Notes under the pieces: generated by a model
The model's database searches: none
Seen by the model: the letters and a program-made list of their open reading frames with translations, nothing else
Told to the model about the DNA's origin: nothing
Position numbers and translations under genes: made by a program
Origin: Vibrio vulnificus CMCP6
GTDB lineage: Bacteria > Pseudomonadota > Gammaproteobacteria > Enterobacterales > Vibrionaceae
DNA: 32,000 bases
Assembly: GCF_000039765.1 (NCBI RefSeq)
Contig: NC_004459.3
Coordinates: forward strand, 1,710,001-1,742,000
Direction: 5' to 3'
Part shown: one piece after another, positions 8,741-32,000 of the stretch
How positions within the stretch are numbered: the first letter of the stretch is position 1
How the letters are laid out: the number at the start of each line of letters is the position of its first letter

Positions 8741-11089
8741 TTAATTTGTCAGTTCAAGTCGTACCAAAATCTCTTCTGTCACTTCCTCTATTTCACAATA
8801 GCCAACCAATGTTGCCAGTTCTTTTTCCAGTTTGCTGGCTTGATGCATGCTGAGTTGAGAAAGTTCATTCAGATCTTTTTGTAACAGGGAAGTCATCGGG
8901 CTGAAAATCGGTGAGGTGGACAGCCTCAGCACATAAAACTCACCCGACATCTGTGCTTTTTTAATAAATAGGATGCGTTCTTTGACACTATCAAACTCGT
9001 TCGTCAGCTTTGTTTGTACGGCTTTGATTTTGTCGCCAAATTTTGCCACTGCGATGTAAATGTCGTGATGGTGTGGTTCTGCCCCTTCAATCCGTTTCGT
9101 CGGATTGGCGATTAAGGTATTTGAACGGCCTTTATAGATGGGTTCTAAAGAGAAATTCTCTTTGTGCCCTAGCTTTGCCAATACCATTAAATGCTTTTCT
9201 AGGGGGAAGTTAACCCCGATGGCCTTGGTTCTGTAGCCCGATTGCATCTTACTGATGAACACTGGCGTGCTGACCATTTTGGACAGCAAAATGCCGTGCA
9301 ACGATTCGAGCAGCTCATTACTTGGTAGGATCTCGTTTTGTGGTTTGAGCTTGTCTTGGTTGTGTTCGATGATGCTATTGAAAAACGCAATGGTTTTCAT
9401 CGTTTGGCTGTTTTCATCAATCACCAGTTGCACTTGCTTGTTGTCTGGGCTGACACGAACCACACGATAAGGAATTTTGTCCAATGGCAGCTTTTTATCG
9501 TAGAGCTGCAGTTCATGTAGGTTGATCTCGATCTCTTCAGACGACACCAACTCAAGTGGCGCATCCAAGGTGAGACTCAAGCCTCGCTTGGATAGATCGA
9601 TCGTCTTGCCTCTCATCGCCAAACCGTCTGCTTTGGTCAGCGTAAGCGGTGATTGAAAACGATAGCGAGGTTCTTTTCTACGAGACTGGGCATCAAAGAA
9701 AATCCCTTTTGGGGAGCCGATGATTTTCCGCGTATGACGAAAAGCATTTAAGGTGCTTGATGGCAGTCGAGGCTTTTCGGTAAAGAGATAGTCTGCGCCA
9801 TTCGAGTTGTCCGCAATTTCTTGCAAAATCCCACAATGCGTTAACCCTGAAGAGGCTTCGGCTAATTCTTGCGAGAAGCTGCCGAGTTGTTGACGTTCGT
9901 TTTCACTGAGTTCAAAAATGGAAATACGGAATGCCCGCCAACTGGCTCGTTTTGCGCCAAGATGCCAAAACAGCTGTCTTTGTTCACGTGTGGCCTCGGG
10001 CATGAGCATGGAGTAGAAAAAGTTTTTCCCTTCATGTTCGTGAGTAAACGCATAAATAACGTTACTGGCACCTTTGAGCCCCGGTCGCATTAGCATCGAC
10101 ATTCGCTGTGAGTTAAACAGTGAACCAAACACCTGTTGATTTCGTTCATCATGCCAGTATTGCCAAATCGGCATATTGTTTGGCGTGAGCATCGCGAGCT
10201 TGAGCTCATCGCCTTGGAAAAACAGCGGTAAGTTACAAGTGTGCTTTAGATAAATATGCTCGTAGCCCCGCGTTCTTGCTCGAATAATTTTGTCTTGGTT
10301 ATCGTGTCGGGCACGTTTGGCTGAGCTATTTAAAGACTCATCGATCACTCTTGAGACAACATTGGTGTCTGTCAGGCGTAAGCAACGAAGAAATTTAACT
10401 GCATCGTTTTCATAAGAATCTTCAACAGCCAAAACACGGTATTCAATCGGCTTATCAACGTGAGCAATTTGCGAGGTTTTGGCCAGTTCACTAAAGGTAA
10501 TTTGAATCACTTCGCCAAGGCTGTAGTTAAATGCACTCGGTACTTTGAACTTCGCACCAGAAGCGGAAAGATCAACGCTGACGCCGTGGAGCAATTGCCC
10601 TTTTGATAACGTAATGTCGACTTGAGAGTGCACTCTGAGCCGCTTTTCTTGGCGTTTGAGATCGTAACCAAGATGGACTGCCTCGGCCTCAAATGGACTG
10701 CTGGCATCACTCAGCCCTTGGCTGCTGGCCGGTTGGCCGCCTTTGCCTAAGGCGCGGAAACTGTTGCGTGTGTTAATTAACGCTTCCCAAACGCCTTCGG
10801 TATAGCCACCAAATTTGCGCGTGTTTTTGTAGTAAGCATTAAAGGCGACATCATCAAACCAATGTTTGATACCGTCAATTTCGTATTCTCGACAATCGCC
10901 CTGTACTCGGCCTCGCAAGTCGATGCTCTTTTTGCAAGGCGCCATCACACGATTTAATTCCATTTTTACCAGTAATTTAGCGGAAGGAGGGTAGCCTTCG
11001 GTCAATTGACCAAGGACAAAATCAAAGTCTTCCGCGTGATAAACCGGGATAAGCCTTTCTGCGATTGAGAGAATTTCAGCTTGTTCCAT
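8741..11089 (-). CDS. Large c-di-GMP receptor protein with two PilZ domains (PlzC-like)
   Basis: 782 aa with two complete PilZ signatures. The first is RQEKR (aa 146-150) with DLSASG (aa 173-178). The second is RKEPR (aa 471-475) with DLSKRG (aa 498-503). Its position between serB and radA matches my recollection of V. cholerae PlzC (VC2344). Confidence 0.8.
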   Translation of the reverse strand: MEQAEILSIAERLIPVYHAEDFDFVLGQLTEGYPPSAKLLVKMELNRVMAPCKKSIDLRGRVQGDCREYEIDGIKHWFDDVAFNAYYKNTRKFGGYTEGVWEALINTRNSFRALGKGGQPASSQGLSDASSPFEAEAVHLGYDLKRQEKRLRVHSQVDITLSKGQLLHGVSVDLSASGAKFKVPSAFNYSLGEVIQITFSELAKTSQIAHVDKPIEYRVLAVEDSYENDAVKFLRCLRLTDTNVVSRVIDESLNSSAKRARHDNQDKIIRARTRGYEHIYLKHTCNLPLFFQGDELKLAMLTPNNMPIWQYWHDERNQQVFGSLFNSQRMSMLMRPGLKGASNVIYAFTHEHEGKNFFYSMLMPEATREQRQLFWHLGAKRASWRAFRISIFELSENERQQLGSFSQELAEASSGLTHCGILQEIADNSNGADYLFTEKPRLPSSTLNAFRHTRKIIGSPKGIFFDAQSRRKEPRYRFQSPLTLTKADGLAMRGKTIDLSKRGLSLTLDAPLELVSSEEIEINLHELQLYDKKLPLDKIPYRVVRVSPDNKQVQLVIDENSQTMKTIAFFNSIIEHNQDKLKPQNEILPSNELLESLHGILLSKMVSTPVFISKMQSGYRTKAIGVNFPLEKHLMVLAKLGHKENFSLEPIYKGRSNTLIANPTKRIEGAEPHHHDIYIAVAKFGDKIKAVQTKLTNEFDSVKERILFIKKAQMSGEFYVLRLSTSPIFSPMTSLLQKDLNELSQLSMHQASKLEKELATLVGYCEIEEVTEEILVRLELTN

Positions 11090-12693: not shown

Positions 12694-14316
12694 ATGACGT
12701 TTTTATGGATAGAAATGTTACTAAGATATCTTGGACTGTTTTTTTGTTTGTGCTTTTCAACTGTTTCGGCTGCAAAGGAGATGGCTGCCGTCGAGTTGCA
12801 GGCTATCCAGTGGTTTCAGGGGCCGCTTAATACCAGCCAGCCTACACCACTTTGGGTATCGCAATCATTGACCCCTGTTGAGGCTTTCAGCCTAACGGGG
12901 GGCGATCATGTCAGCTTACTTAACTTTGATGTCAACAAGCTGGGCTTGTATGTCATTGATTTCAGAAATTCCACGTTAATCGGTCGCTATCAACATTATC
13001 TTTATGATGCCAATAACCAGTTGGTGGCGTCTTCTCGAGGTGGGATTGACTCTCTTGAATCAGCACATTTCTTTTTGCGTCATGGGCAGGAAGTTCAATT
13101 GGCGCCCGGTCGATACTCTCTTGTCACGGCACAACGCTCACAGTTTAATATCGCGCCGCCCACCACATTTGTCATGGAGAAGAGTCTTTATCTCGAGGAT
13201 ATTCGTGTTGGGAATGCGATTACTCTCACTGGCATAGGCATTCTCCTTTCGCTGTTTTTCTATTATCTGGTTTTGTCGATTGCGCGCAAAAACTTGGTCG
13301 ATTTTAGCTATGCGATGTTTATTCTCGGTAATTTATTGTTTAACAGCACTTCGTTATTGGTTGCTCATCATCTATTAGGTATTCAGTGGTTTGGTGGGGC
13401 AAGCTGGCCAATCTTATGCTCAAACATGGCTTACTTGGTGTTTGTCATGCAGTTACTAGAGGTGAAATCGAACGAAACGCCAATGGTTTACTACGTTGGC
13501 TGTGGATTGCTCGTTCTGTTTGCGATGTTCTTTAGTGCCTCTTTCTTCTTACCGAATTGGCAAAATGAATTTAATCGCCACGCCGTTGGTCTGTTTATTT
13601 CCTTCGGCATGTTTGCCGGTATTCGCATGATTTTCAAAGGGAGCAAAGTTGCTCGTTGGTATGTATTGGCTAACTTAGGCTTCTTTGTCTTGGCGGCGGT
13701 TGCTATTTCCCAAGAGCAGATTGCCGGTTTACAAACCATTTATATGTCTCATATCGGCCTTATTGCGGTTGTGGTTGAGGTGATGTTGCTTTCCTGCGTG
13801 GTTGCGTATCAAATGACCAGAGTGGAAGAGGAGCGCAATGCCGCTCTTGTTCATGCTCAACAAATGCTAGAGCTGGCAAGTACCGACACCCTGACAGGCC
13901 TACCTAATCGGTATGCTTTAGAAAATCGACTGCCTAAAACCAACAAAAATGAAGCGTTTATCTATCTCGACTTAGATGGCTTGAAAATCTGTAACGATCA
14001 GTATGGCCATGACATGGGGGACAAGCTGTTGCTGGTCTTCAGCGAGAAAATGAGAAAAATGCTTCCTTCCAACTGCGAGTTATTTAGGATTTCTGGCGAT
14101 GAGTTTGGCGTTATTTTACCGAATTCTCACTTACAAGAGCTGGTCGATATGGTTCATTTTATTGATAAACAACTTCGTGAAGAGGTGGCGCTGTTTGTTG
14201 GTGTCAGCTTTGGCGTGGCCTATTTTAAAGATCATAAGAACTATCGCAAAACGATAGAGGAAGCCGATCACAACATGTATTTGTATAAAAGGAATAAACA
14301 ATCACATGCGACTTAA
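12694..14316 (+). CDS. Membrane sensor diguanylate cyclase (signal peptide, periplasmic domain, 7 TM, GGDEF domain; 7TMR-DISM-like layout)
   Basis: There is a signal-like N-terminus, a soluble region of about 150 aa, seven hydrophobic segments (aa ~175-375), then a GGDEF domain (LTGLPNR, DLDGLKICND, RISGDEFGVIL). The active-site motif reads SGDEF (14092-14106). ATG 12715 is an alternative start. Confidence 0.85.
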   Translation: MTFLWIEMLLRYLGLFFCLCFSTVSAAKEMAAVELQAIQWFQGPLNTSQPTPLWVSQSLTPVEAFSLTGGDHVSLLNFDVNKLGLYVIDFRNSTLIGRYQHYLYDANNQLVASSRGGIDSLESAHFFLRHGQEVQLAPGRYSLVTAQRSQFNIAPPTTFVMEKSLYLEDIRVGNAITLTGIGILLSLFFYYLVLSIARKNLVDFSYAMFILGNLLFNSTSLLVAHHLLGIQWFGGASWPILCSNMAYLVFVMQLLEVKSNETPMVYYVGCGLLVLFAMFFSASFFLPNWQNEFNRHAVGLFISFGMFAGIRMIFKGSKVARWYVLANLGFFVLAAVAISQEQIAGLQTIYMSHIGLIAVVVEVMLLSCVVAYQMTRVEEERNAALVHAQQMLELASTDTLTGLPNRYALENRLPKTNKNEAFIYLDLDGLKICNDQYGHDMGDKLLLVFSEKMRKMLPSNCELFRISGDEFGVILPNSHLQELVDMVHFIDKQLREEVALFVGVSFGVAYFKDHKNYRKTIEEADHNMYLYKRNKQSHAT

Positions 14317-16565: not shown

Positions 16566-18653
16566 ATGGCAGATTTATCAAAATACAGAAACATTGGTAT
16601 TTTCGCGCACGTTGACGCGGGTAAAACCACTACCACTGAGCGTATCTTGAAGCTTACTGGTAAAATCCACCGTCTAGGCGAAGTACACGACGGCGCATCA
16701 ACCATGGACTTCATGGATCAGGAAGCAGAGCGCGGTATCACTATCCAGTCTGCTGCGACTACTTGTTTCTGGAAAGACCACCGTTTTAACGTAATCGACA
16801 CCCCGGGACACGTTGACTTCACTGTTGAAGTTTACCGTTCTCTTAAAGTTCTTGATGGTGGTATCGGTGTATTCTGTGGTTCTGGCGGCGTTGAGCCTCA
16901 GTCAGAAACTAACTGGCGTTACGCGAACGAATCAGAAGTATCTCGTCTGATCTTCGTAAACAAACTAGACCGTATGGGTGCAGACTTCTTCCGCGTTGTT
17001 GAGCAAGTGAAGAAAGTACTAGGCGCTAACCCTCTAGTTATGACTCTACCTATCGGCCGTGAAGACGAGTTCGTAGGTGTAGTTGACGTATTGACTCGTC
17101 AAGCATTCGTATGGGATGACTCAGGTCTTCCAGAAAACTACGAAATCAAAGAAATCCCAGCAGACATGGTAGATCAAGTTGAAGAATACCGTGAGATGAT
17201 GATCGAATCTGCTGTTGAGCAAGACGATGAGCTAATGATGGCTTACATGGAAGGCGAAGAGCCATCTATCGAGCAAATCAAAGCTTGTATCCGTAAAGGT
17301 ACTCGTGATCTAGCGTTCTTCCCAACGTACTGTGGTTCTGCATTCAAAAACAAAGGTATGCAACTTGTACTAGACGCAGTTGTAGATTACCTACCGTCTC
17401 CAACAGAAGTTGAGCCTCAACCACTGACTAACCCAGAAACGGGTGAACCAACTGGTGAAGTTGCAACAGTATCTGTTGACGCGCCTCTAAAAGCGCTAGC
17501 GTTCAAGATCATGGACGACCGTTTCGGTGCTCTAACCTTCATCCGTATCTACTCAGGTCGTCTGAAGAAAGGTGACACAGTTCTTAACAGTGCAACTGGT
17601 AAGACTGAGCGTATCGGCCGTATGGTGGAAATGCACGCAAACGACCGTAACGAACTTGAAGCAGCTCAAGCGGGTGACATCATCGCTGTTGTTGGTATGA
17701 AGAACGTTCAAACTGGTCACACTCTATGTGATCCTAAGCATGAATGTACTCTTGAGCCAATGATCTTCCCAGAACCAGTAATCTCTATCGCTGTTAAGCC
17801 TAAAGATAAAAACGGTTCTGAGAAAATGGGTATCGCGATCGGTAAAATGGTTGCAGAAGATCCATCATTCCAAGTTGAAACTGACGAAGATTCTGGCGAA
17901 ACCATCCTTAAAGGTATGGGCGAACTTCACCTAGACATCAAAGTTGACATCCTGAAGCGTACTTACGGCGTTGAGCTAGAAGTAGGTGCTCCACAGGTAG
18001 CTTACCGTGAAACTATCACGAAAGCAGTTGAAGACAGCTACACGCACAAGAAGCAGTCTGGTGGTTCTGGTCAGTTCGGTAAGATCGACTACCGCATCAA
18101 ACCAGGTGAGCCAAACTCTGGCTTCACGTTCAAGTCAACAGTTGTTGGTGGTAACGTACCTAAAGAATTTTGGCCTGCAGTAGAGAAAGGCTTCGAAGGC
18201 ATGATGCAGAACGGTGTTCTAGCTGGCTTCCCAACGCTAGACGTTGAAGTTGAGCTATTCGACGGTGGTTTCCACGCAGTTGACTCATCTGCAATCGCAT
18301 TTGAAATCGCAGCGAAAGGCGCATTCCGTCAATCAATGCCTAAAGCAGGTCCTCAGCTTCTTGAGCCAATCATGAAAGTTGACGTGTTCACTCCAGAAGA
18401 CCACGTTGGTGACGTAATCGGTGACTTGAACCGTCGTCGCGGTATGATCAAGAACCAAGAAATGGGTGCAACTGGCGTTCGCGTTAAAGCAGACGTACCA
18501 CTTTCAGAAATGTTCGGCTACATCGGTACTCTACGTACAATGACTTCTGGTCGTGGTCAGTTCTCTATGGAGTTCTCTCACTACTCAGCTTGTCCAAGCA
18601 ACGTAGCAGAGCAAGTAATTGCTGAAGTTAAAGAGCGTAACGCTAAGAAGTAA
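16566..18653 (+). CDS. fusA: Elongation factor G, second (non-str-operon) paralog
   Basis: G1 [10 protein letters not shown]2 RGITI, G3 DTPGH and G4 NKLD are present in a 695-aa product. The gene is monocistronic and not flanked by rpsG/tufA. Codon usage looks strongly biased. Confidence 0.95.
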
Positions 18654-21920: not shown

Positions 21921-22649
21921 CTAGTTAGAAAGTCGATATTTCCCTGGACTTACCCCGGTTTTCTTTTTAAATATGCGCGAAAAATACGACACGTCTCGAT
22001 AACCACATTGATAAGCGATAAAGGCGATTTTCGCATGGCGATCTTCGAGCAACAGCTGTTTGGCTAGATTGATGCGTTTGTTGGACAAGTAATCTCGGAA
22101 GCTGAGTCCAATCTCTTTGTGAAACACTTTAGAAAAATAGGTAATAGAGTAGTGGCAAAACGAGGCGGCGTCTTCTTCGCGAATGACATTGCTGATGTTG
22201 TTGTCGATGTGATTTAGCAGAGATTGTAACGCTTGGCTAATCATGGGATCGGCGGCTTGTGCAGAAGCGTTGCCACCGAGCTCTACATACCATCGTAGAT
22301 TCATTCTTGAGATAAGCTGTTTCAACCATTCTTGGGTGTTTTGTAAAGACAGATTGAGATGGTCGAAAACGGCAGAGTGATAGTAAGAGCCCAACTCAAT
22401 CGGCCGAGAGTGGATTAAAATCAACTTCTTATTGAGATTGATACTGAGTTTTAGCGCCGTCAGCAGTAGCGGGTACTGCTCTTCTGAATGGATGAAAAAA
22501 AAGGCAAACTGGGTACTCGGTTCACTGAGAATAGAGACGTCTGTGTCATGTTCAATCAGAGTGAACGTATTGAGAATAAGATCTTTTTCGGTTTTCTCAA
22601 GCAGGCGGACTGAGCTTCCCAGCCAATGAGCGGTACGTCTCACTTCCAT
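21921..22649 (-). CDS. AraC/XylS-family transcriptional regulator
   Basis: 242 aa. The C-terminal dual HTH includes FSKVFHKEIGLSFRDYLSNKRINLAKQLL and IAYQCGYRDVSYFSRIFKKKTGVSPGKYR. I do not recognise the N-terminal ~135 aa. The gene is divergent from the flp operon and has SD GAGGGGGA. Confidence 0.85.
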   Translation of the reverse strand: MEVRRTAHWLGSSVRLLEKTEKDLILNTFTLIEHDTDVSILSEPSTQFAFFFIHSEEQYPLLLTALKLSINLNKKLILIHSRPIELGSYYHSAVFDHLNLSLQNTQEWLKQLISRMNLRWYVELGGNASAQAADPMISQALQSLLNHIDNNISNVIREEDAASFCHYSITYFSKVFHKEIGLSFRDYLSNKRINLAKQLLLEDRHAKIAFIAYQCGYRDVSYFSRIFKKKTGVSPGKYRLSN

Positions 22650-23093
22650 GCTGATTCCCCCTCAAACTGAAATATGAATATCAAGCAGCTATTGTTTGCA
22701 TTTCAAAGGGCGAAGAGTGTGTTGTCCCAAATTATCCCTTTGTGCCTCAGTGTGGTCACCTTGGTGGTGCTTTGCAGATTCTGCTCTCATACAAAAAGGT
22801 TAGTGCTGCCACAAAAAAGTGCCAACAAAAAAAGTGATCCTTTTGGTTTGTGCAGTGATAGGTGGTTCAAACAAACGCTAACGAACAGTATTTGCCTTTT
22901 ATTTCATCTACTTTTAGTGATTAGACTTTAGTAGTGGTTGAGCGCTTTCTGCTCTCTAGTGATAGAAGGGCAATGAAGAATTTGCGTAAAGTCGTAAAAA
23001 AGTACTAGTAAAAGACAAAAAAGTCCTAACGTCTTTATTTAGCGACCTCTAACTTTAAAGGGCAAGTTCATTGCTTATGGAAGGAGAGACACA

Positions 23094-23258
23094 ATGAGCA
23101 ATCTATTACACAAAGCAAAAGCGTTTATGCAAGATGAAGAAGGTTTGTCGGTTGTTGAATACGTTGTGGGTGCAGCGTTACTGGTTGTTGCTCTAGGGCT
23201 AGTATTCAGTAACTTAGGCACCAATTTACAGAACAAGCTAAACGCGGCAGTCAGCTAA
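23094..23258 (+). CDS. flp: Flp-family type IVc pilin, copy 1 (absent from the ORF track because it is under 60 aa)
   Basis: My hand translation is MSNLLHKAKAFMQDEEGLSVVEYVVGAALLVVALGLVFSNLGTNLQNKLNAAVS (54 aa). It carries the Flp processing motif G/LSVVEY followed by a hydrophobic helix. A strong SD GGAAGGAGAG lies upstream. Confidence 0.85.
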   Translation: MSNLLHKAKAFMQDEEGLSVVEYVVGAALLVVALGLVFSNLGTNLQNKLNAAVS

Positions 23259-23474: not shown

Positions 23475-23993
23475 GTGGTCATAAACAGTTTGATATGGTT
23501 TTGTTTGCTGGTGGTTGCCGTTTACGACGCCAGAGATAACCGAATACCAAATGCATGGCTTTTGCCCCTGACTCTTCTTGCTTGCTTACATTGGGTGGGC
23601 AAGGGGGATTTTAGTCAGCTGTTTTTAGCGATAGGTGCAGGTTCAATCTATTTTGGCAGTGGCTTGGTCCTTTTTTTCCTTAGGGCGATGTCTCCGGGTG
23701 ATGTAAAGCTTCTTGGCGTAGTGGGTGTAGTGATCGGCTGGGATGCCATGGGCGCAGTTGCCTACTGGATTACACTTTCAGCCGGGCTCGTTGCGCTGTT
23801 TTTCATGATGCTTCACTACGCTCAATATCCTGACTCTTTACAGAAATTGGTTGGTCGATATTCGTTTCAAGCAATGTCAGGTCAGGTTCCTTTACTTTCT
23901 GTTTATCCATCAGAAGTGGTTGTTCAAGGAAAACTCACCATGCCGTTTGCACCCGCCGTTGTAATTGGGTTAGCGCTGTTTCATTACTTTTAG
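23475..23993 (+). CDS. tadV: Flp prepilin peptidase (TadV/CpaA, A24 family, no methyltransferase domain)
   Basis: 172-aa polytopic protein with a GTG start preceded by GGAAGGAGGGG. The two catalytic-Asp contexts are VYDARDNRIPN and SPGDVKLLG. Confidence 0.85.
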   Translation: MVINSLIWFCLLVVAVYDARDNRIPNAWLLPLTLLACLHWVGKGDFSQLFLAIGAGSIYFGSGLVLFFLRAMSPGDVKLLGVVGVVIGWDAMGAVAYWITLSAGLVALFFMMLHYAQYPDSLQKLVGRYSFQAMSGQVPLLSVYPSEVVVQGKLTMPFAPAVVIGLALFHYF

Positions 23994-24020
23994 TATGAGC
24001 ATATTAAGTAGGGGGCTTTC

Positions 24021-25367
24021 ATGGCAGAACCCACAGCGAAACACAGAGATAAACTGACGCCTCAAGCCGCTCCACCGAAGGTGCCAACCTCATTAAATCA
24101 ATTGAAAATTCCACCTGTCGTGGTTGAGAATTTGCTGATCAAGCAATTGGCAGCATACCCCAAATCGGACCTACTGACGTTGACGCGTTTGATGGGACTC
24201 AACAGCCATATTGTTGATGAAGTGCTGGCTGTTTTAAGAAAAAAATCCCTTGTTGAAGTTTTTCAATCGGATCCCGCTGCGTTTGGGGATACAAGCCATG
24301 GAACGCGGATTCTTTATGCTCTATCGGAATCGGGTATGGAAGAAGCGGACGATGCGTTTATTAAAGATGCTTATTTGGGCCCGTGTCCTGTTTCCGTGAT
24401 GGAATATTCTGAGATGGTTAAAGCGCAAGATGTCCGGGCAAAAATCGTCAATCGAGCCGATGTGGAATACGCGTTTAAAGATGTCCTTGGTGCGCATCGT
24501 ATGGTCGCTGTATTAGGCCCTGCCATTAATTCAGGTCGAGCGTTGCTCCTCTATGGTGATGCTGGCACAGGAAAAACCTTTGTGGCCACTCGGCTACTTA
24601 ACTCTTTGAATACATCTGTGTTTATTCCTTACTCCGTCTATGCCGCAGGTAACATTATCAAGGTGTTTACCCCGCAGCATCACAAAAAAGTGGAAGAAGA
24701 AGACGCGCAGCAATCCATTGTTTTCAAAGACCAGTTTGATAAGCGCTGGGCGCTGTGTGAGCGACCCAGTATTCAGGTGGGTGGGGAGCTCACCATGGAA
24801 ATGCTGGAAGTGAACCACTCTCAACACAATCGAGTCTGGATGGCACCCCTGCAAATGATGGCTAATAACGGCATCTTCATTATCGATGACTTGGGCCGTC
24901 AACCCATGCCGGTGGCGACACTGCTCAACCGCTGGATTGTGCCGATGGAGTATTTCTACGATTACCTCTCTTTGCCGAATGGCCAACAAATAACCATTCC
25001 TTTTATTCTCACGTTGGCGTTTTCGACCAACTTAGATCCAGAAAAAATCAGTGACCCCGCTTTCTTGCGCCGTTTAGGTTACAAGATTCAGTTCCAGCCT
25101 CTTATGAAAGATGAGTACCAAGAGCTATGGCAAATCATGGCGCGCGGAAAATCGCTATCACTTGAGCCGGGGTTGTTTGACCGATTAACCGAACTGCATG
25201 AGCAACATAGTGTTGGCTACTATCCCTGTTTGCCAAAAGACATAGCGGGTATCAGCCGCGATATTGTTGCTTTTGAAGAGTCAGAGCCCGTGATCACTCG
25301 GCAAGTACTAGAAAGGGCTTGGGAAGTTTACTTTACCGCGGATGGTAAAGGCGGAGGTGCACGATGA
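24021..25367 (+). CDS. AAA+ ATPase (MoxR/NtrC-like layout) embedded in the Tad operon; function unknown
   Basis: Walker A GDAGTGKT (24555-24578), Walker B IFIIDD (24873-24890), a sensor-1-like STN and an Arg-finger-like DPAFLRRLGY. The N-terminal ~170 aa is not an ATPase. The stop overlaps the rcpC start (ATGA). SD AGGGGG is present. Confidence 0.8.
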   Translation: MAEPTAKHRDKLTPQAAPPKVPTSLNQLKIPPVVVENLLIKQLAAYPKSDLLTLTRLMGLNSHIVDEVLAVLRKKSLVEVFQSDPAAFGDTSHGTRILYALSESGMEEADDAFIKDAYLGPCPVSVMEYSEMVKAQDVRAKIVNRADVEYAFKDVLGAHRMVAVLGPAINSGRALLLYGDAGTGKTFVATRLLNSLNTSVFIPYSVYAAGNIIKVFTPQHHKKVEEEDAQQSIVFKDQFDKRWALCERPSIQVGGELTMEMLEVNHSQHNRVWMAPLQMMANNGIFIIDDLGRQPMPVATLLNRWIVPMEYFYDYLSLPNGQQITIPFILTLAFSTNLDPEKISDPAFLRRLGYKIQFQPLMKDEYQELWQIMARGKSLSLEPGLFDRLTELHEQHSVGYYPCLPKDIAGISRDIVAFEESEPVITRQVLERAWEVYFTADGKGGGAR

Positions 25368-26110
25368 GTCGTAACCAAATTATTTTACTGTTTTTACTCT
25401 CAATTTTATTTGGTTTGGCGGCCGTATTTTTTGCCAAGCAGTGGATGGATAAGCAGCTGACGCCTCAACAAGATGTTGAAGTGGTTGAGCGAGAACCTGT
25501 GGTGATTGCGGCCATAGAAATTCCGGCTGGCAGTGTGATTGAGCCGCAGCACCTCACCACAAAACTGTTGGAAAAATCGTGGCGTGAGCTCTCGCAATAT
25601 ACCGATCCTAAAGAGCTGGTGGGGCAAATCGTTGCGGGAGCAATTTACCCTGGTGAAATCATCATAGAGCAGCGTTTGACCGTGCCTGGTGAGGGCTCGA
25701 CGCTTGCTGCGTTAATTCCAGAGAACAAACGAGCCATTACCATTCGCGTAAATGATGTGATTGGCGTGGCGGGTTTCTTGCTGCCGGGAAACCGTGTTGA
25801 TGTACTCAATACCGTCTCTTACAGCAAAGGTTCAGCGGTCACTAAAACCGTACTGAAAGATATTAAGGTGTTGGCGGTGGACCAAACGGCCAGAACCAAA
25901 GAGAACAAGCCGATCATCGTTCGAGCGGTGACATTGGAAGTCACACCGGATCAGGCGGAAAAACTGTTGAGTGCCAAGAGCAAAGGTGAAATCCAACTCA
26001 CCTTGCGTAATCCACACGAGCCTGAGGAAAAAGTGGTTCGTCGTTATGTCGCCCCTAGTGTCACCATAATCAAAGGGACGGAGTCATCGAAGATTCAGGT
26101 AAAAGAATAA
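25364..26110 (+). CDS. rcpC: RcpC/CpaB Flp pilus assembly protein
   Basis: 248 aa with an N-terminal TM anchor. A SAF-like region (VVIAAIEIPAGSVIEPQHL) is followed by an RcpC-type region (RAITIRVNDVIGVAGFLLPGNRVDVL). Confidence 0.85.
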   Translation: MSRNQIILLFLLSILFGLAAVFFAKQWMDKQLTPQQDVEVVEREPVVIAAIEIPAGSVIEPQHLTTKLLEKSWRELSQYTDPKELVGQIVAGAIYPGEIIIEQRLTVPGEGSTLAALIPENKRAITIRVNDVIGVAGFLLPGNRVDVLNTVSYSKGSAVTKTVLKDIKVLAVDQTARTKENKPIIVRAVTLEVTPDQAEKLLSAKSKGEIQLTLRNPHEPEEKVVRRYVAPSVTIIKGTESSKIQVKE

Positions 26111-26120
26111 GGTGTGACGC

Positions 26121-27587
26121 ATGAAAATTTTGATTTTAGTCTTTACGTTAGGCGTGCTGAGTGTCTTTACCGCTTACGGAGCGACACAAACGGGGAAAGT
26201 GGTCACGGTACCGCATCACAAATCGACGTTTGTTGCGTTGTCAGGTAAAGCAAAACGCGTCTCGCTTGGCGATCCTGAAGTGTTAGACATCGTGATGTTG
26301 AAATCCGATGAACTGTTCTTGATCGGTCGTAAGTTAGGCTCAACAAACCTAATGGCATGGGACAGCCGCGGGAACTTAATTGAATCGATCAACATTGAAG
26401 TCACACACGATCTCAATAGCCTCAAGCAAAAGCTTTATGAGTTTCTGCCAGAGGAACCGATTCAAGTCCACAGTGCGCAAAATCGCTTAATTTTAAGTGG
26501 TATGGTCAGCACTCAAGAAAAAATGAACATCGCTCTGCGTGTGGCAGAAACCTATGCGGCGGGGCAACAAGCGGATGAAGCCACGGCCTCGTTAAACAGT
26601 CAGGTAGAAAAAAGTGGCGTGATCAACTTAATGACGATCGGCGGTGCCCAGCAGGTGATGCTAGAAGTGACCGTGGCAGAAGTGCAGCGCAGCTTGGTCA
26701 GACGTTTTGACTCTAACTTCCACTTTTTCGAAAACAACGGCAGCTTCTCATGGGGGGCAACTTCCGCTGGCGGCATCATTGATGACATCGGTGGCGGTGT
26801 AGGCCCTATCTTCAACGTGCCGGGGATCGACAGCACCGGGTTATTGAGCACCTTCATTGATGGCGACACCCTGTTTACTTTTGCATTAGACATTGCCAAA
26901 GAAAATGGCGTGGCCAAAGTATTGGCTGAGCCGAATTTGACGGCGTTAAGTGGCGCGAAAGCGGAGTTTCTTGCTGGTGGTGAGTTCCCGATTCCAGTAC
27001 CAGACAGCGATGGTGTCACCATTGAATACAAAGAGTATGGGGTGGGATTGAAGTTTGTTCCGACCATCTTGAGTGACAAACGCATCAATCTTAACTTGGC
27101 GGTGGACGTGAGTGAAATCGCGGCTTCCAATACGCTGACCTTAAGCCCGGGTGGCACCAATGCCAGCTATTTTATTCCCCCCATCACACGTCGCTCAGCG
27201 TCTTCAACCTTAGAGCTTGCGGATGGTCAAACCATCGGTATTGCGGGTCTCTTGAGTGAAAATGTACGCGATGTCAGTAGCAAAATGCCCGGCTTTGGCG
27301 ATATTCCAGTCTTGGGACAACTCTTTAGTAGCCAAGATTATATTTCCGGTGAAACCGAACTGGTGATTTTGGTGACGCCAAGGCTCGCGAAGCCAATCGA
27401 CCGTAGCAAAATTACGCTGCCGACCGATGCCTTTGTCGAACCGAGCGATCTGAAATATTACTTACTTGGTGTCGGTGCTTATATCGCAGAATCGCCCACC
27501 AACGCGAATGCGGCTGCGCAACCTGAGCCCGAGTTTCTACAAAATGGGCAGGGTGGCACTGAAGGTGAATTTGGTCACAGCCTGTAA
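26121..27587 (+). CDS. rcpA: RcpA/CpaC outer-membrane secretin
   Basis: 488 aa with a signal peptide. The secretin C-domain signature is VLAEPNLTALSGAKAEFLAGGEFPIPV ... PGFGDIPVLGQLF ... ELVILVTPRL. Confidence 0.9.
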   Translation: MKILILVFTLGVLSVFTAYGATQTGKVVTVPHHKSTFVALSGKAKRVSLGDPEVLDIVMLKSDELFLIGRKLGSTNLMAWDSRGNLIESINIEVTHDLNSLKQKLYEFLPEEPIQVHSAQNRLILSGMVSTQEKMNIALRVAETYAAGQQADEATASLNSQVEKSGVINLMTIGGAQQVMLEVTVAEVQRSLVRRFDSNFHFFENNGSFSWGATSAGGIIDDIGGGVGPIFNVPGIDSTGLLSTFIDGDTLFTFALDIAKENGVAKVLAEPNLTALSGAKAEFLAGGEFPIPVPDSDGVTIEYKEYGVGLKFVPTILSDKRINLNLAVDVSEIAASNTLTLSPGGTNASYFIPPITRRSASSTLELADGQTIGIAGLLSENVRDVSSKMPGFGDIPVLGQLFSSQDYISGETELVILVTPRLAKPIDRSKITLPTDAFVEPSDLKYYLLGVGAYIAESPTNANAAAQPEPEFLQNGQGGTEGEFGHSL

Positions 27588-27597
27588 GGAGAGAGAG

Positions 27598-27852
27598 ATG
27601 AAAACCTATTTTGCACTACTTTTTATGGCTGTCTCTTTTTTAAGTGGCTGTGCAAATGATGCGCCTTTGGGCCAACATGTGGCTAAACTTAAAGCAGAGC
27701 AAACCTATAATCCAGACGCAACCCAGGAAAACCTGGACCTTATTCCTTACGGCAGTGGCGATAAAATGGACAGCGCTTATCAGCTTTACCTCGGTAAGAA
27801 AACTGAAAGCATGTCGAGTAGTAGTAGCCAAGTTATCAACGGTTTTAAATAA
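27598..27852 (+). CDS. Small lipoprotein, Tad-associated
   Basis: Start moved to ATG 27598 (SD AAGGAGAGAGAG); the track ORF 27466 overlaps rcpA. The 84-aa product has a lipobox LSG|C at residues 16-19. Confidence 0.7.
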   Translation: MKTYFALLFMAVSFLSGCANDAPLGQHVAKLKAEQTYNPDATQENLDLIPYGSGDKMDSAYQLYLGKKTESMSSSSSQVINGFK

Positions 27853-27871: not shown

Positions 27872-29092
27872 ATGGACATGACCAGACACTGCAAGGGAAA
27901 ACGTAAGCAACAAGGCTTAGTGCTGGTCTTGGTGACGGTAGCGATGTTGAGTTTTGTCATCATGGCGGCATTGGCGATTGACGTCACTCATCAAGTGGTG
28001 AATCGCACCAAATTGCAAAATGCCGTCGATGCGGCGGCCTTAGCTGCGGCCATGGTGGCAGACGCCACTCACGATACTCCCACCGCAACGGCGGCCGCCA
28101 AAACAACACTTAACTCCATGCATAGCGCCTCAGGAAACAGTGAGCTGGATATCGACTCGGCCACCTTCAGTATTGATTATTCCAACGACCCTTTGACGTT
28201 CCCCGATAGCAGTTTCAACAGTGATGAGGACATTTATGTCCGAATTTCGATTGATGATCTGAGCCTCAGCGAATTTTTTATGCAGGCGCTGGGGTTGAGT
28301 AAAACCGTCTCAGCTTCTGCAGTCGCAGGGCCAAGCTCAAGCATTAACACCATTAGTAACGTCGTGCCCATTGGCGTATGCAAAGGCGATGAGAGTGGTG
28401 GTATTTACGGTTATAACCCTGCTGAAGTTTATGTGCTTAAAGTGGGGGACTCGACCATGACCACCATGGGATCGGGTAATTACCACTTGCTCGACTTTGG
28501 CTCGGGGGCGGACACCGTGAGAGAGGCTTTAGGTGGTGGCTATGAGGGTACCGTACAAATCGGTGGCGATATTGGCACCCAGACTGGTGTGGCAGCAGGT
28601 CCGGTGGGGCAAGGCGCGAATACTCGCTTGGGGATCTACCAAGGTGGCGTTTCGAGTAGTGATTACCCCCCCGACTTTATTACCGAACAACCCGATACAC
28701 CCGCGACGGTCGATACCGATGGCAATGTGGTTTATGACTATGCAACGGATTTGACCTATGCTGAATATAAGCTCAAAACCGAAGCGTGCATTGAAGACAG
28801 TAGCTCTGGAGATTGTGAGTCGGGTGGTCAGCCATGGCGACGTATCCTGCCCGTTCCAATGGTGGACTGTACGGGAAAAAGTGGCGGCTCGACGACCTAT
28901 TCTGTTGTAGAGGTGGGCTGTTTTTTCTTGCTTCAGCAGGTCCCAACAAACAACTCGGGTTTAGGGCAATTGGTGTTTGGTGAGTTTGTTGACTCTTGTG
29001 TGGTGGAAAACGGCTCAATTGGCAACACACCGGGAAACCAAGGTGCTTATAAGATCGTCATCTATGAAGATCCAAACAATGGAGATTCGTGA
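27872..29092 (+). CDS. tadG: TadG-like pilus assembly protein
   Basis: 406 aa. The N-terminal TadG-type segment is QQGLVLVLVTVAMLSFVIMAALAIDVTHQ. The large extracytoplasmic part contains GNYHLLDFGSG and several Cys residues. Confidence 0.7.
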   Translation: MDMTRHCKGKRKQQGLVLVLVTVAMLSFVIMAALAIDVTHQVVNRTKLQNAVDAAALAAAMVADATHDTPTATAAAKTTLNSMHSASGNSELDIDSATFSIDYSNDPLTFPDSSFNSDEDIYVRISIDDLSLSEFFMQALGLSKTVSASAVAGPSSSINTISNVVPIGVCKGDESGGIYGYNPAEVYVLKVGDSTMTTMGSGNYHLLDFGSGADTVREALGGGYEGTVQIGGDIGTQTGVAAGPVGQGANTRLGIYQGGVSSSDYPPDFITEQPDTPATVDTDGNVVYDYATDLTYAEYKLKTEACIEDSSSGDCESGGQPWRRILPVPMVDCTGKSGGSTTYSVVEVGCFFLLQQVPTNNSGLGQLVFGEFVDSCVVENGSIGNTPGNQGAYKIVIYEDPNNGDS

Positions 29093-29093
29093 G

Positions 29094-29531
29094 ATGAAAA
29101 GAAAGATGAACAACCAAAAAGTGCGTGGGTTTGCCGCGGTCGAAATGGTCGCCACTCTGCCAGTGATTTTGTTGATTCTAGTGGGCGTGGTGGAAGTCGG
29201 GCATATGTTTACCCAGTACAACACCCTCGCCAAAGGAGTACAAAATGGTGCTCGTTTTGCTGTCAATGATGTCTATGGAACCATTACCTATGACCAGATT
29301 GCCAACGAAGCTGACATTAAAAACATGGTGCTACATGGCCAAGTCTCTGGCGGCAGCTACACCATTTTAGACAACTTAACCGCAGACGATATTACGGTGA
29401 CCCATAATAGCGGCTATGTCACGGTGACGGCCTCTTACACTTACGTACCATCGTTTAGCAAAATTCCGTACACCAACACGGAATTAGGCATCACGTTCAC
29501 AGCGTCTTCTGTGATGAGGAGCGGCTTGTGA
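29094..29531 (+). CDS. TadE-like pseudopilin
   Basis: Start moved to ATG 29094, 1 nt after the tadG TGA. The TadE N-terminal motif RG/FAAVEMVATLPVILLILVG has a prepilin-like G-x4-E site. The product is 145 aa. Confidence 0.75.
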   Translation: MKRKMNNQKVRGFAAVEMVATLPVILLILVGVVEVGHMFTQYNTLAKGVQNGARFAVNDVYGTITYDQIANEADIKNMVLHGQVSGGSYTILDNLTADDITVTHNSGYVTVTASYTYVPSFSKIPYTNTELGITFTASSVMRSGL

Positions 29532-30046
29532 TGCGAGGTAAGGAATGGAAGAAAAAAAATAACCAAGGACTGGCAGTGATTGAACTGACCATTGTCTCAA
29601 CTGTGTTGATGTTGGTACTGCTGTCAATCTTCTCCGTTGGTTACTACATGTTTTCGATGCAGATGATTAATGAGGCGACACGTAAAGCGGCACGCTTAGC
29701 AACGGTTTGCTATGTCACCTCAAGCGCGCACCAAAACATCAAAGACGCCGTCATTGATAGCAGTTTGCCCGGCAATTTCAGTGATCAGCATTTGCTGATT
29801 GAGTATCTCGACGCCAATGGCGATGTGGTCAGCGGGGACTTAACCGATAATGATGTTTTTATAACCATAAAATACGTTAGAGCTAGAGTGAGTAACTATC
29901 AATTTCAATTTGTTTCAGTTCTTAATTTTTTAGGAAACAACGGCTTAGTGACCATTCCGCAATTTGAAACCACGCTACCTGTCGAGAGTTTAGGGGTGGT
30001 GAGACCAACTAAAAACGATTCGGATGGTTCCACAACTGACTGCTAG
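29531..30046 (+). CDS. Second TadE/TadF-like pseudopilin
   Basis: The ATG overlaps the upstream stop (TGATG); GTG 29528 is an alternative start. The motif QG/LAVIELTIVSTVLMLVLLSIF is present in a product of ~171 aa. Confidence 0.7.
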   Translation: MRGKEWKKKNNQGLAVIELTIVSTVLMLVLLSIFSVGYYMFSMQMINEATRKAARLATVCYVTSSAHQNIKDAVIDSSLPGNFSDQHLLIEYLDANGDVVSGDLTDNDVFITIKYVRARVSNYQFQFVSVLNFLGNNGLVTIPQFETTLPVESLGVVRPTKNDSDGSTTDC

Positions 30047-30056
30047 GGGACGGTAT

Positions 30057-31274
30057 ATGGGAGAAGCTGTGAAGCTAAATAGGAACAATGATGAAAGTTT
30101 TGCTCGCTTAAAGACCAGTCTACATATCTGGGTGTTGTACAGTAGCGACCGATTTCAGCTTCATATGGGGGCGCAACTCAAGTTGTGCAAAAACCTCAGT
30201 TTTGATCTGATTTCAATGCACAACTTCAATGTCTCAGGGCTCACGCACGTGACGCCACCCGATCTTATTTTTGTTGAAACTGGGCCCAATTGGGCACAAA
30301 AAGTGCTCTCATTGCAAGAATATGAAGCTCCCAGTGACGATTTCGAAGCCTCGTTGATTGTGTTTGGTGACGAAAGTGACAATGGCGCATTGAAAATTGC
30401 TTTGCGTCTGGGCGCGGCTGACTTTGTTTCTGATAAAGCCTTAGTGGGGGACTTCTTCCACCTACTCAAAAATGTTTCCGATGAGAAGTTTTCCAGCCGA
30501 GAGCTTGGAGAATTGCACTTATTTATTAACACCAAAGGCGGCTGCGGTGCCTCGACACTGGCCTTGAATACCGCCTTAGAAATAGCCGGTTCGCATCCGG
30601 AGAAAGTGCTTCTGCTGGATGTGGACATTCCCTTTGGCGTCATCTCTGAATACCTCAACATTTCACCGCAATACAGCTTAACGGACGTCATCGAGCACTC
30701 TAAGGATCTTGACCACGATTCGCTCACCGCCATGGTGACCAAGATGGAGAGTGGTTTGCACGTGTTGGGTTTTTTCCACGAAAACACCGCAGAAGATTTT
30801 GATAAAGCGAAGGAAATTGGCCGGTTACTGCCTGTTCTTCGCGAAATTTATCCTTACGTCATTATCGATCTGTCCCGTGGGGTGGATCGGATTTTCTCGG
30901 CGGTGGTCGCGCCCGCGACCAAGGTTTTCTTGATTACGCAGCAAAACCTGGCCGCGATTAAGAACACCTCGCGCATCCTGCGCATGTTGACCTTTGAGTA
31001 TGGTGTTACCCGAGAGCAGATCGAGTTGATTGTTAATCGATACGAGAAACGAGCATCAATCAAATTAAAAGACATTGAGCACACCATCACAGGCATTCCG
31101 GTTTTCATGATCCCGAATGATTACCGTGTTGCGATTGAAAGTGCCAATTTAGGGCGACCTTTTGTTGAGAACAAGAAAAACAGTGCGATTACCCGTTCCA
31201 TTGTCGAGTTTTCTCATCACATCGCGAAACCTGAGGAAGAGAAAAAAAGTTGGCTCAAGAAAATATTTTCTTAG
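30057..31274 (+). CDS. tadZ: TadZ/CpaE localisation ATPase-like protein (receiver-like N-domain plus MinD/ParA-like domain)
   Basis: Start moved to ATG 30057 (SD AGGGGA at 30045-30050). The deviant Walker A reads KGGCGAST (30534-30557). MinD-like DVDIPFG and VIIDLSRG segments are present. Confidence 0.85.
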   Translation: MGEAVKLNRNNDESFARLKTSLHIWVLYSSDRFQLHMGAQLKLCKNLSFDLISMHNFNVSGLTHVTPPDLIFVETGPNWAQKVLSLQEYEAPSDDFEASLIVFGDESDNGALKIALRLGAADFVSDKALVGDFFHLLKNVSDEKFSSRELGELHLFINTKGGCGASTLALNTALEIAGSHPEKVLLLDVDIPFGVISEYLNISPQYSLTDVIEHSKDLDHDSLTAMVTKMESGLHVLGFFHENTAEDFDKAKEIGRLLPVLREIYPYVIIDLSRGVDRIFSAVVAPATKVFLITQQNLAAIKNTSRILRMLTFEYGVTREQIELIVNRYEKRASIKLKDIEHTITGIPVFMIPNDYRVAIESANLGRPFVENKKNSAITRSIVEFSHHIAKPEEEKKSWLKKIFS

Positions 31275-31309: not shown

Positions 31310-32000
31310 ATGTTTTTTAAAAGAAAAAATATCAACCCAGAGTTTCAGGAAAAAGCAGCGGCACTAGAAGCGCAACCCAGTTCAACGATCAGTGATGAGG
31401 TTATATCTGACATTGAGTCCAATGTGCAGCCAATAGACTCAAACAGAGTCGAGCCGATGCAACAAGACAAAAAACTGCTGGAGCGTCAGGCGAAAGATAA
31501 AGCGGTTGAAGAGGCACGTAAACAACTCGAACAAGAGTTGGCGATTAAGCACTACTATCATCAGCGTTTGTTGGAAACATTGGATTTGGGCTTGTTGTCG
31601 AGTTTGGAAAAAGAGCGTGCGAAGAAAGATTTGCACGATGCCATCGTCCAGCTCATGGCGGAAGACCAAACCCACCCAATGAGCTCAGAAGGGCGTAAGC
31701 GGGTGATCAAGCAGATTGAAGATGAAGTGTTTGGTCTTGGGCCCCTAGAGCCATTACTGCATGACAAAACCGTGTCGGATATTTTGGTTAATGGTCCGAA
31801 AAACATCTTTGTCGAACGTCGCGGTAAGTTGGAAAAGACCCCCTATACCTTTTTGGATGATCGCCACTTACGCAACATCATCGACCGCATTGTTAGCCAG
31901 GTCGGGCGTCGTATTGATGAAGCCTCGCCCATGGTGGATGCGCGTTTGCTGGATGGTTCGCGAGTCAACGCAATCATTCCACCCTTGGCCCTCGACGGAG
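31310..32000 (+). CDS. tadA: TadA/CpaF secretion ATPase; 3' end outside the window (not in the ORF track)
   Basis: Frame 2 is open from ATG 31310 (SD GAAAGGA) to the window end. My hand translation includes VFGLGPLEPLLHDKTVSDILVNGPKNIFVERRGKLEKT and MVDARLLDGSRVNAIIPPLALDG, which is the classic CpaF/VirB11-type N-terminal core. Confidence 0.9.
   Translation, partial: MFFKRKNINPEFQEKAAALEAQPSSTISDEVISDIESNVQPIDSNRVEPMQQDKKLLERQAKDKAVEEARKQLEQELAIKHYYHQRLLETLDLGLLSSLEKERAKKDLHDAIVQLMAEDQTHPMSSEGRKRVIKQIEDEVFGLGPLEPLLHDKTVSDILVNGPKNIFVERRGKLEKTPYTFLDDRHLRNIIDRIVSQVGRRIDEASPMVDARLLDGSRVNAIIPPLALDG

Follow-up and report, generated by a model that had tools for sequence, protein, structure and literature searches.

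The window analyzed here is a 32,000-nt stretch of the Vibrio vulnificus CMCP6 genome (NC_004459.3, positions 1,710,001 to 1,742,000) that carries a Tad/Flp pilus locus, and within this locus a gene for a 448-amino-acid (aa) AAA+ ATPase lies between the prepilin peptidase gene tadV and rcpC. The gene and its product are referred to as the AAA gene and the AAA protein. On balance, we favor the reading that the AAA protein is a dedicated accessory ring ATPase acting on proteins of one subtype of Tad machine, type B. Tad/Flp pili serve in adhesion, biofilm formation, and virulence, including in V. vulnificus, the Burkholderia cepacia complex, plant-associated Pseudomonas, and Rhizobium. Current Tad models hold two nucleoside triphosphatases (NTPases), TadZ and TadA, of which TadA/CpaF drives both extension and retraction of the pilus. 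A third conserved, operon-coupled ATPase in a widespread subtype implies a further step, energy-dependent or nucleotide-gated, to which the model organisms are blind.

Throughout the full-text literature that was searched, including the V. vulnificus, Aeromonas, and Sinorhizobium Tad papers, the AAA gene was unmentioned except in one in silico study (PMC7716237). No experimental study of a role in Tad biogenesis was found in that search, in agreement with the initial annotation, which had been made from the letters of the window. The existence of the gene is already on record, both in annotation and in PMC7716237. Its architecture, the breadth of its family, its conservation across α-, β-, and γ-Proteobacteria, the coupling of tadV, the AAA gene, and rcpC, and the independence of the protein from MoxR, NtrC, TadZ, and TadA appear to be new.

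The AAA protein and its family

The AAA protein shared 98% identity with a V. vulnificus protein annotated as "AAA family ATPase" (P0001). A word-indexed search returned 5142 homologues at E ≤ 0.001, and an exhaustive search of representatives returned 2182 clusters (50% identity) at E ≤ 0.001 and 453 at E ≤ 1e-30, with most cluster matches spanning residues ~15-440, the N-terminal domain included. The open reading frame (ORF) is not a chance one, because it has thousands of homologues and full-length cluster matches. No match to the protein in Pfam, NCBIfam, PHROGs, or PADLOC exceeded its cutoff; the matches were at the level of the P-loop (~residues 150-240), and the best in Pfam was AAA_16, below cutoff. 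The PDB sequence search, run with the single sequence and with the family profile, was uninformative and returned only AAA+ matches in the Walker A region (midasin, p97, spastin). The protein anchors a large unnamed AAA+ family (the 453 clusters) for which there is no Pfam or NCBIfam model.

Conservation was read from an alignment of 33 diverse family members at ~30-40% identity. Walker A, Walker B, sensor 1, arginine finger, and lid, by which the AAA+ superfamily is recognized, were all present, with roles assigned by position (Table 1). The motifs quoted in the initial annotation lay where it had placed them, namely GDAGTGKT at aa 179-186, IIDDLGRQ at 287-294, FSTN at 334-337, and FLRRLGY at 348-354. 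In IIDDLGRQ, the second acidic Walker B residue is Asp and not the usual Glu. The family consensus of the sensor-2 region of the lid was chPrDl, and several lid residues were at least 90% conserved. In the β-rich insert that takes the position of helix α2, residues D240, R242, R248, P249, and A275 were invariant, and G254, G255, E256, L257, and P276 were at least 90% conserved. Read from these motifs, the AAA protein is a complete AAA+ ATPase whose catalytic motifs are conserved across phyla; it probably binds ATP and is predicted to hydrolyze it. The best 19-residue Kyte-Doolittle window scored 1.18, so there is no transmembrane segment, as initially annotated, and the protein is predicted to be soluble.

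The AlphaFold2 model built on the family alignment was of high confidence (predicted local distance difference test [pLDDT] 90.3, predicted template modeling score 0.87) and consisted of a winged helix (residues 30-115), an αβα core with an insert between β2 and Walker B, a hairpin at α3-β4, and a four-helix lid. The strands of the insert in the model were 205-208, 211-214, 243-247, 250-253, 265-267, and 272-274. Using Foldseek against the PDB, the first match to the AAA protein was 8P49, followed by RuvB, archaeal LonB, BchI, and ClpB/ClpC. For 8P49 (Pyrococcus furiosus Q8U0N8), the match extended over ~405-427 columns at E 4e-14 with a template modeling (TM) score of 0.42-0.56. This entry is a cryo-electron microscopy hexamer from a study of homo-oligomers, an AAA+ protein with a flexible N-terminal domain, no assigned function, and no Pfam family. 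The two proteins are unlike in sequence, with ~14% identity and with Q8U0N8 missed both by phmmer and by the family profile, and the root-mean-square deviation of ~9 Å points to an arrangement of the domains that is either different or uncertain.

RuvB, LonB, and ClpB are hexameric ring motors. The AAA protein shared with RuvB, LonB, and ClpB-NBD2 the core, the lid, and the pre-sensor-1 hairpin (E 5e-10 to 1e-7). Identity to these three was only 13-17%. The AAA protein differed in having neither the C-terminal winged helix of RuvB nor a protease domain, and in its β-rich insert replacing α2 and its N-terminal winged helix. By analogy with these folds, the AAA protein is a pre-sensor-1-hairpin AAA+ protein and probably a ring former; judged from the structural neighbors 8P49, RuvB, and Lon, a hexamer is most likely.

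The RuvB hexamers were the best characterized of the fold matches, and we considered whether the AAA protein might translocate nucleic acids in the manner of RuvB or ComM, in connection with DNA uptake by the Tad pilus. The names given to relatives in some sources include "predicted ATPase with chaperone activity" and "DnaC," and for some bacteria, uptake of DNA by way of Tad pili has been reported (PMC8513845, title). The consensus of the pre-sensor-1 hairpin is acidic/hydrophobic with no conserved Lys/Arg, however, the winged helix is not basic, no competence genes were present in the 55 Tad-linked loci examined, and the matches to DnaC, IstB, and YifB covered the Walker A region only and were far below their cutoffs. 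A translocase of this kind is extremely improbable.

The initial annotation had labeled the protein MoxR/NtrC-like. This label was not upheld, since the profiles concerned scored below cutoff around Walker A only, the GAFTGA loop was missing, and the nearest folds were 8P49, RuvB, and LonB. The bpMoxR profile gave E 0.079 (12.5 bits, cutoff 27) over residues 150-201 only, AAA_5 gave 18.4 (cutoff 22), AAA_3 was not reported, Mg_chelatase (PF01078) gave 17.7 bits (cutoff 20.3) over residues 152-196 only, and TIGR00368 gave 18 bits (cutoff 362). Identity as an NtrC-type bacterial enhancer-binding protein was rejected, as neither GAFTGA nor G.F.G. was found when these motifs were sought in the protein sequence and Sigma54_activat gave E 0.08 (13.1 bits, cutoff 20.2). 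What stood of the MoxR/NtrC-like layout were its broad features, the pre-sensor-1 hairpin and the insert after β2, which the AAA protein shares with the MoxR/Mg-chelatase/NtrC group (BchI, 1G8P, was a fold match at E 3.8e-9), and not membership in the family; the insert here is ~80 residues long and mostly β, unlike the short hairpin within α2 of that group.

The protein is also not a diverged TadZ/CpaE or CpaF, a possibility that the initial annotation had kept in view. TadZ/CpaE and TadA/CpaF are likewise P-loop NTPases of the same operon, with a different architecture. As a TadZ duplicate it was rejected on an hhalign probability of 4.5%, on BLASTP, which returned nothing, and on its classical Walker A, not the deviant KGGxGK[ST]. 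As a TadA duplicate it was rejected because hhalign gave 64% over only ~60-64 columns of the P-loop, there was no T2SSE match, and BLASTP again returned nothing.

The initial annotation had pointed to a winged-helix stretch at the N-terminus, and the model supports this. Modeled alone, the N-domain reached a pLDDT of 85.9, and its top Foldseek matches were MarR-family proteins (E 1.6e-4 to 5e-3, TM score ~0.45). A MarR-like winged helix-turn-helix joined to an oligomerizing AAA+ module could make an ATP-dependent DNA-binding transcription factor that controls flp/tad or other genes. The best sub-cutoff Pfam match, AAA_16, occurs in large ATP-dependent regulators as well, and FleQ and NtrC were among the structural neighbors at a weak sequence level. 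Such a transcription factor is nonetheless improbable. The consensus of the recognition helix is hydrophobic/acidic, the wing is variable in length and not basic, and the net charge of the winged helix ranges from -3 to +3 across the family. The GAFTGA loop and a Sigma54_activat match are missing, as given above, the AAA gene is internal to the operon and translationally coupled, an AraC regulator, probably a dedicated one, is conserved beside the operon, and the MarR fold is common among protein-binding winged-helix domains. The winged helix would bind protein rather than DNA, as its residues suggest.

Linkage of the AAA gene to Tad loci

The initial annotation had described a 448-aa ORF that starts 27 nt after tadV with its own Shine-Dalgarno sequence and whose stop overlaps the rcpC start in an ATGA, and these coordinates were confirmed (tadV ends at 23993; Table 1). 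The neighboring Tad genes were as it had claimed, with tadZ and tadA both downstream according to Pfam, translation, and L085. L085 and L086 are V. vulnificus contigs with the same gene order and identical genes, and they were used for gene calls and Pfam matches. Terminator-like sites were absent at both junctions of the AAA gene, that with tadV and that with rcpC. The sole same-strand promoter-like match, at 24102-24131, lies inside the AAA ORF, and such matches were rarer (4) than in shuffled sequences (10.7). The GC content was even along the operon (0.45-0.52). Judged from this layout, the AAA gene shares a transcript with tadV and rcpC and is translationally coupled to them.

For comparison with other genomes, a scan with one genome per species gave at least 599 confirmed stretches, of which the best 80 were kept as loci (47 from γ-/β-Proteobacteria and 33 non-proteobacterial), and tadV and the Tad neighbors were scored in these with profile hidden Markov models. 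The 47 operon loci include Vibrio, Photobacterium, Shewanella, Pseudomonas, Halomonadaceae, Methylococcales, Massilia, Duganella, Hydrogenophaga, and Methylotenera. Directly downstream of the AAA gene was rcpC in 47/47 loci, and directly upstream was tadV in 45/47; of the two exceptions, one locus was cut at the 5' end of the AAA gene and the other (L011) gave no match. The 4-nt overlap of the AAA gene with rcpC was present in 17 of the 47 loci, and the gap was ≤20 nt in 37. The claim of a third NTPase that is an integral, coupled member of the operon was thereby borne out, the order tadV-AAA-rcpC recurring in 45-47 of the 47 loci.

Plasmids and chromids were searched for the AAA gene by tblastn, giving 76 further records, and the eight loci that were opened were all Tad loci (8/8) of variable gene order. 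In Burkholderia, Paraburkholderia, and Photobacterium, the order was as in Vibrio. The AAA gene followed tadB-tadC in Rhizobium and Sinorhizobium fredii, lay at the far end of the locus, after tadD-tadV, in Pseudorhodobacter, and was convergent with tadC in Salipiger. In Rhizobiaceae, the gene 3' of the AAA gene was considered as a cryptic tadV and rejected, as it had no Pfam match; the adjacency of tadV and the AAA gene therefore applies to β/γ-Proteobacteria and Pseudorhodobacter and not to Rhizobiaceae. The AAA gene thus adjoins Tad genes across α-, β-, and γ-Proteobacteria despite its differing position in the locus, and the persistence of this linkage through rearrangement in three proteobacterial classes is strong evidence of shared function.

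The AAA gene is specific to a Tad subtype and is not universal. To our knowledge, the classical Tad loci of Aggregatibacter, Caulobacter, and P. aeruginosa are without it. When plasmid records with the AAA gene were set against those with RcpC, the counts were 57/57 for Rhizobium, 7/76 for Sinorhizobium, 0/16 for Sphingobium, 0/13 for Azospirillum, and 0/4 for Vibrio. The subtype corresponds to a cluster of P. fluorescens F113 that was defined in silico as "Flp/Tad type B," in which the ATPase PSF113_4189 is type B-specific and the P. aeruginosa Tad locus has no extra ATPase gene (PMC7716237). In that study, PSF113_4189 was grouped with tadV, rcpC, rcpA, tadGEFZ, and tadABCD and set against TadZ, with no domain analysis (PMC7716237). 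By locus type and gene order, PSF113_4189 is probably the orthologue of the AAA protein. The presence of the gene in a Tad subtype had therefore probably been noted before, and no function had been given to it. The type B content is matched by the window together with L085, namely two flp genes, tadV, the extra ATPase, rcpC, rcpA, tadG/E/F before tadZ, and tadABCD. The same gene order was seen in Pseudomonas, Burkholderia, Paraburkholderia, Photobacterium, and other loci; in the Pseudomonas loci (L019-L035, L039, L056), the order is flp-tadV-AAA-rcpC-tadG-tadE-tadF-tadZ-tadA with a full-length homologue of 34-38% identity.

The linkage also bears on whether the AAA gene is a passenger carried in an island, with a function unrelated to pili. 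The tad locus has been called a mobile "widespread colonization island" (quoted in PMC7716237), and in many phyla the family is without Tad neighbors. We regard a passenger as very improbable, given that the linkage is kept at ~30-40% sequence divergence in three proteobacterial classes and several gene orders, that the rcpC overlap is conserved, that the Rhizobium plasmid records with the AAA gene and with RcpC are equal in number, and that the GC content of the AAA gene matches that of the operon.

Proposed role of the AAA protein

The order flp-tadV-AAA-rcpC-rcpA-lipoprotein-tadG-tadE-tadF-tadZ-tadA-tadB-tadC-tadD would encode a type B machine served by an AAA ring. The AAA protein would be soluble, ATP-binding, probably ATP-hydrolyzing, and most likely a hexameric ring, and its N-terminal winged helix may be an adaptor that recruits a protein partner and not DNA. 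ATP would be used to assemble, remodel, or gate the cytoplasm-exposed part of the Tad machine. The action would probably be early, at the stage of prepilin processing by TadV, build-up of the inner-membrane platform, and the RcpC alignment complex. The ring would neither power polymerization of the fiber, which is the job of TadA, nor position the machine, which is the job of TadZ.

A precedent is GspA/ExeA (ExeAB of Aeromonas and Vibrio), a non-motor AAA-type ATPase of some type II secretion systems that is needed for secretin assembly. ExeA is encoded with a machine of the type IV filament family, and the AAA gene here lies just upstream of the genes for a secretin-associated protein and a secretin. 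ExeA is membrane-bound and has a peptidoglycan-binding domain in the periplasm, whereas the AAA protein has no transmembrane segment, has a winged-helix head, scored 21.7 bits with AAA_22 (cutoff 27), and had no PG_binding match. A more specific form of the accessory-ring reading, which we consider rather unlikely, is a third energy-using step in type B machines in which the ring couples TadV processing to the loading of pilins/pseudopilins onto the platform, or extracts or recycles pilins during retraction. Such a step would be missing from the Caulobacter, Aggregatibacter, and P. aeruginosa models, and the protein would belong to a new AAA+ family that has an archaeal structural relative in 8P49 and is reused in other phyla with FHA/HDOD domains.

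Several findings weigh against a dedicated role in the Tad machine. Within 10 kb of the homologue, 29/33 of the non-proteobacterial relatives, full-length proteins among varied neighbors, had no Tad genes, profile searches included, and the core activity of the family is not intrinsically about pili. RcpC homologues were on 208 plasmid records compared with 76 for the AAA gene (about one third), and the model Tad systems work without an extra AAA gene. The DD of Walker B in place of DE means that hydrolysis may be slow, as in a nucleotide switch rather than a motor, and no conserved aromatic pore-loop motif was evident after β2 in the family alignment.

The initial annotation had taken a majority of homologues outside tad loci as grounds for doubt; this was the situation outside the Proteobacteria and not within them. 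The 29 relatives were from Bryobacterales and other Acidobacteriota, Planctomycetota, Melainabacteria, Chloroflexota, and Acidimicrobiia, and the remaining 4/33 had Tad genes at ≤10 kb, with L067 divergent from flp. All-against-all clustering and a Pfam census of the 88 genes flanking the 29 non-Tad loci revealed no family common across lineages. The commonest Pfam families in these 88 genes were GGDEF, EAL, FHA, and protein kinase/tubulin-like, with three members each, and synteny was lineage-specific only, with kinase/FHA-EAL/GGDEF genes in Planctomycetes and transglutaminase-like genes in Melainabacteria. An N-terminal FHA domain was present in the relatives P0157 and P0213 and an HDOD domain in P0186. 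In a neighbor-joining tree, the Tad-operon members formed proteobacterial clades and the others a separate cluster, so the module of winged helix and AAA+ core is general, with a tie to Tad in one of its proteobacterial lineages.

A nucleotide-dependent signaling switch is a serious rival, given the DD of Walker B, a pore loop in which no aromatic motif is conserved, and the FHA/HDOD fusions, taken as sensor domains, and the Ser/Thr kinase-tubulin-like, FHA-EAL, and GGDEF proteins encoded beside the Planctomycetes homologues are consistent with it. In such a switch, the winged helix-AAA+ protein would turn pilus activity on or off, or between extension and retraction, according to the state of the cell, with the binding of ATP as the trigger and hardly any mechanical work. 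This reading overlaps with that of the accessory ring and is possible, though we do not think it probable: the Tad-linked clade has no sensor domain, the AAA gene is inside a structural operon and coupled to rcpC, not beside a regulator, and the AAA protein resembles hydrolyzing AAA+ proteins in its conserved sensor 1, Arg pair, and sensor-2 position.

Features of the window and of related loci

The coordinates of the AAA gene, its motifs, and the neighboring genes are listed in Table 1.

Table 1. Features of the pilus locus, with positions counted from the first nucleotide of the window
Feature	Position	Strand	Basis or remark
AraC-family regulator	21921-22649	-	HTH_AraC/HTH_18 on the identical gene in L085/L086; divergent from the flp-tad operon
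flp pilin gene, 54 aa	23094-23258	+	Pfam Flp_Fap E 1.1e-5, below cutoff; EEGLSVVEY processing-type motif
Second flp-like pilin gene, 60 aa	23258-23440	+	EEGLSVVEYVVGAALL motif as in flp; called in L085/L086; homologues in 26 loci
tadV prepilin peptidase	23475-23993	+	Peptidase_A24 E 1.1e-10, above cutoff
Shine-Dalgarno-like AGGGGG	24010-24015	+	Read from sequence; 5 nt before the AAA ATG
AAA+ ATPase gene, 448 aa, ATG start	24021-25367	+	ORF; N-terminal winged helix
Winged-helix domain, aa 30-115	24108-24365	+	Helices 32-45, 51-58, 62-74; strands 78-82, 97-101; helix 103-115
Walker A GDAGTGKT, aa 179-186 (K185)	24555-24578	+	G179, G182, G184, K185 invariant in 33 homologues
β-rich insert, aa 204-283, in helix α2 position	24630-24869	+	Motif D240-x-R-W-x2-C-x-R-P-x4-GGELT
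Walker B strand hhhhDD (IFIIDD; D289/D290)	24873-24890	+	D289, D290, G292 invariant; strand 285-288
Pre-sensor-1 β-hairpin, aa 312-328	24954-25004	+	Strands 313-317, 323-327, between helix 298-311 and strand 331-336
Sensor-1 Asn337, FSTN 334-337	25029-25031	+	End of strand β4; at least 90% conserved
Arg350/Arg351, candidate arginine finger	25068-25073	+	Invariant in 33 homologues; within AFLRR(L/I)GYK; FLRRLGY 348-354
α-Helical lid, aa 363-437, sensor-2 position C-(L/H)-P-(K/R)-D	25107-25331	+	Helices 363-376, 385-396, 403-419, 427-437
ATGA	25364-25367	+	rcpC start and AAA stop overlap
rcpC/cpaB	25364-26110	+	Pfam RcpC (PF16976) E 4.7e-31, plus SAF
rcpA secretin	26121-27587	+	Secretin E 3.8e-39; T2SS-T3SS_pil_N
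Small lipoprotein, 84 aa, MKTYFALLFMAVSFLSGC...	27598-27852	+	Called in L085/L086; lipobox LSGC in translation
tadG-like pseudopilin	27872-29092	+	Pfam Tad (TadE/G-like) E 1.1e-9
tadE	29094-29531	+	PF07811 on the identical gene in L085
tadF (TadE-like)	29531-30046	+	TadE E 2.3e-9; gene call in L085
tadZ/cpaE, ParA/MinD-type NTPase	30024-31274	+	AAA_31, CbiA, ParA matches just below cutoffs; KGGCGAS deviant Walker A
tadA/cpaF, 5' part, runs off the window	31310-32000	+	Translation; full L085 gene 495 aa, matches T2SSE

Homologues of the AraC gene were found on the 5' side of flp in 20 related loci, mostly divergent, in Vibrio, Pseudomonas, Marinobacterium, and others, and the gene is probably a dedicated regulator of type B Tad loci. 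In the interval from the AraC gene to flp, an 85-aa ORF (22674-22931) had no family match and was uncalled on L085/L086; it is probably not a gene. The two flp genes are in tandem, with the stop of the first and the start of the second sharing base 23258, and a Pfam search of the second gave no match. Duplication of flp was recurrent among the related loci, with up to three copies in Burkholderia L082 and in L021. For the 84-aa lipoprotein, no Pfam family is on record; it may be a pilotin or an RcpB-like partner of RcpA. Loci of Burkholderia, Paraburkholderia, and Rhizobium have a small hypothetical gene in its position after rcpA. The tadZ gene was also recognized by a custom-built TadZ profile.

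In the α-proteobacterial Tad loci that contain the AAA gene, an L,D-transpeptidase gene lies between tadZ and tadA/cpaF (L081, 4996-5559; L089, 16511-17071), which hints at peptidoglycan remodeling linked to this Tad subtype. The type B locus on the 65-kb plasmid pPT65 of Paraburkholderia terrae ends with a MarR-family gene directly after tadC (L088, 17735-18220), and the fold of its product is that of the N-domain of the AAA protein. In four Planctomycetota loci (L053, L073, L074, L076), the next gene after the AAA homologue encodes a ~1100-aa protein with Ser/Thr kinase and tubulin-like (PF13809) parts, and in L073 and L074, an FHA-EAL protein precedes the homologue, which makes for a conserved neighborhood of signaling genes. 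A secretin-like gene with a TPR-like N-terminus is divergent from the AAA homologue in L044 (7703-9295) and L057 (4848-6536) and adjoins a TonB-type outer-membrane protein of ~1180 aa. As a lead, this secretin neighbor was set aside, as the two contigs are near-identical (one assigned to Bryobacteraceae, the other to "Arcobacter" and probably mis-binned) and count as one observation.

Elsewhere in the window, a 7TMR-DISM/GGDEF diguanylate cyclase gene lies at 12694-14316, a few kilobases upstream of the tad locus, and the gene for a 782-aa protein (8741-11089, minus strand) adjoins radA. A second EF-G-type gene (16566-18653, 695 aa), with the full set of EF-G domains on L085, sits between the genes for a HAD hydrolase and a LysR regulator, away from any ribosomal operon.

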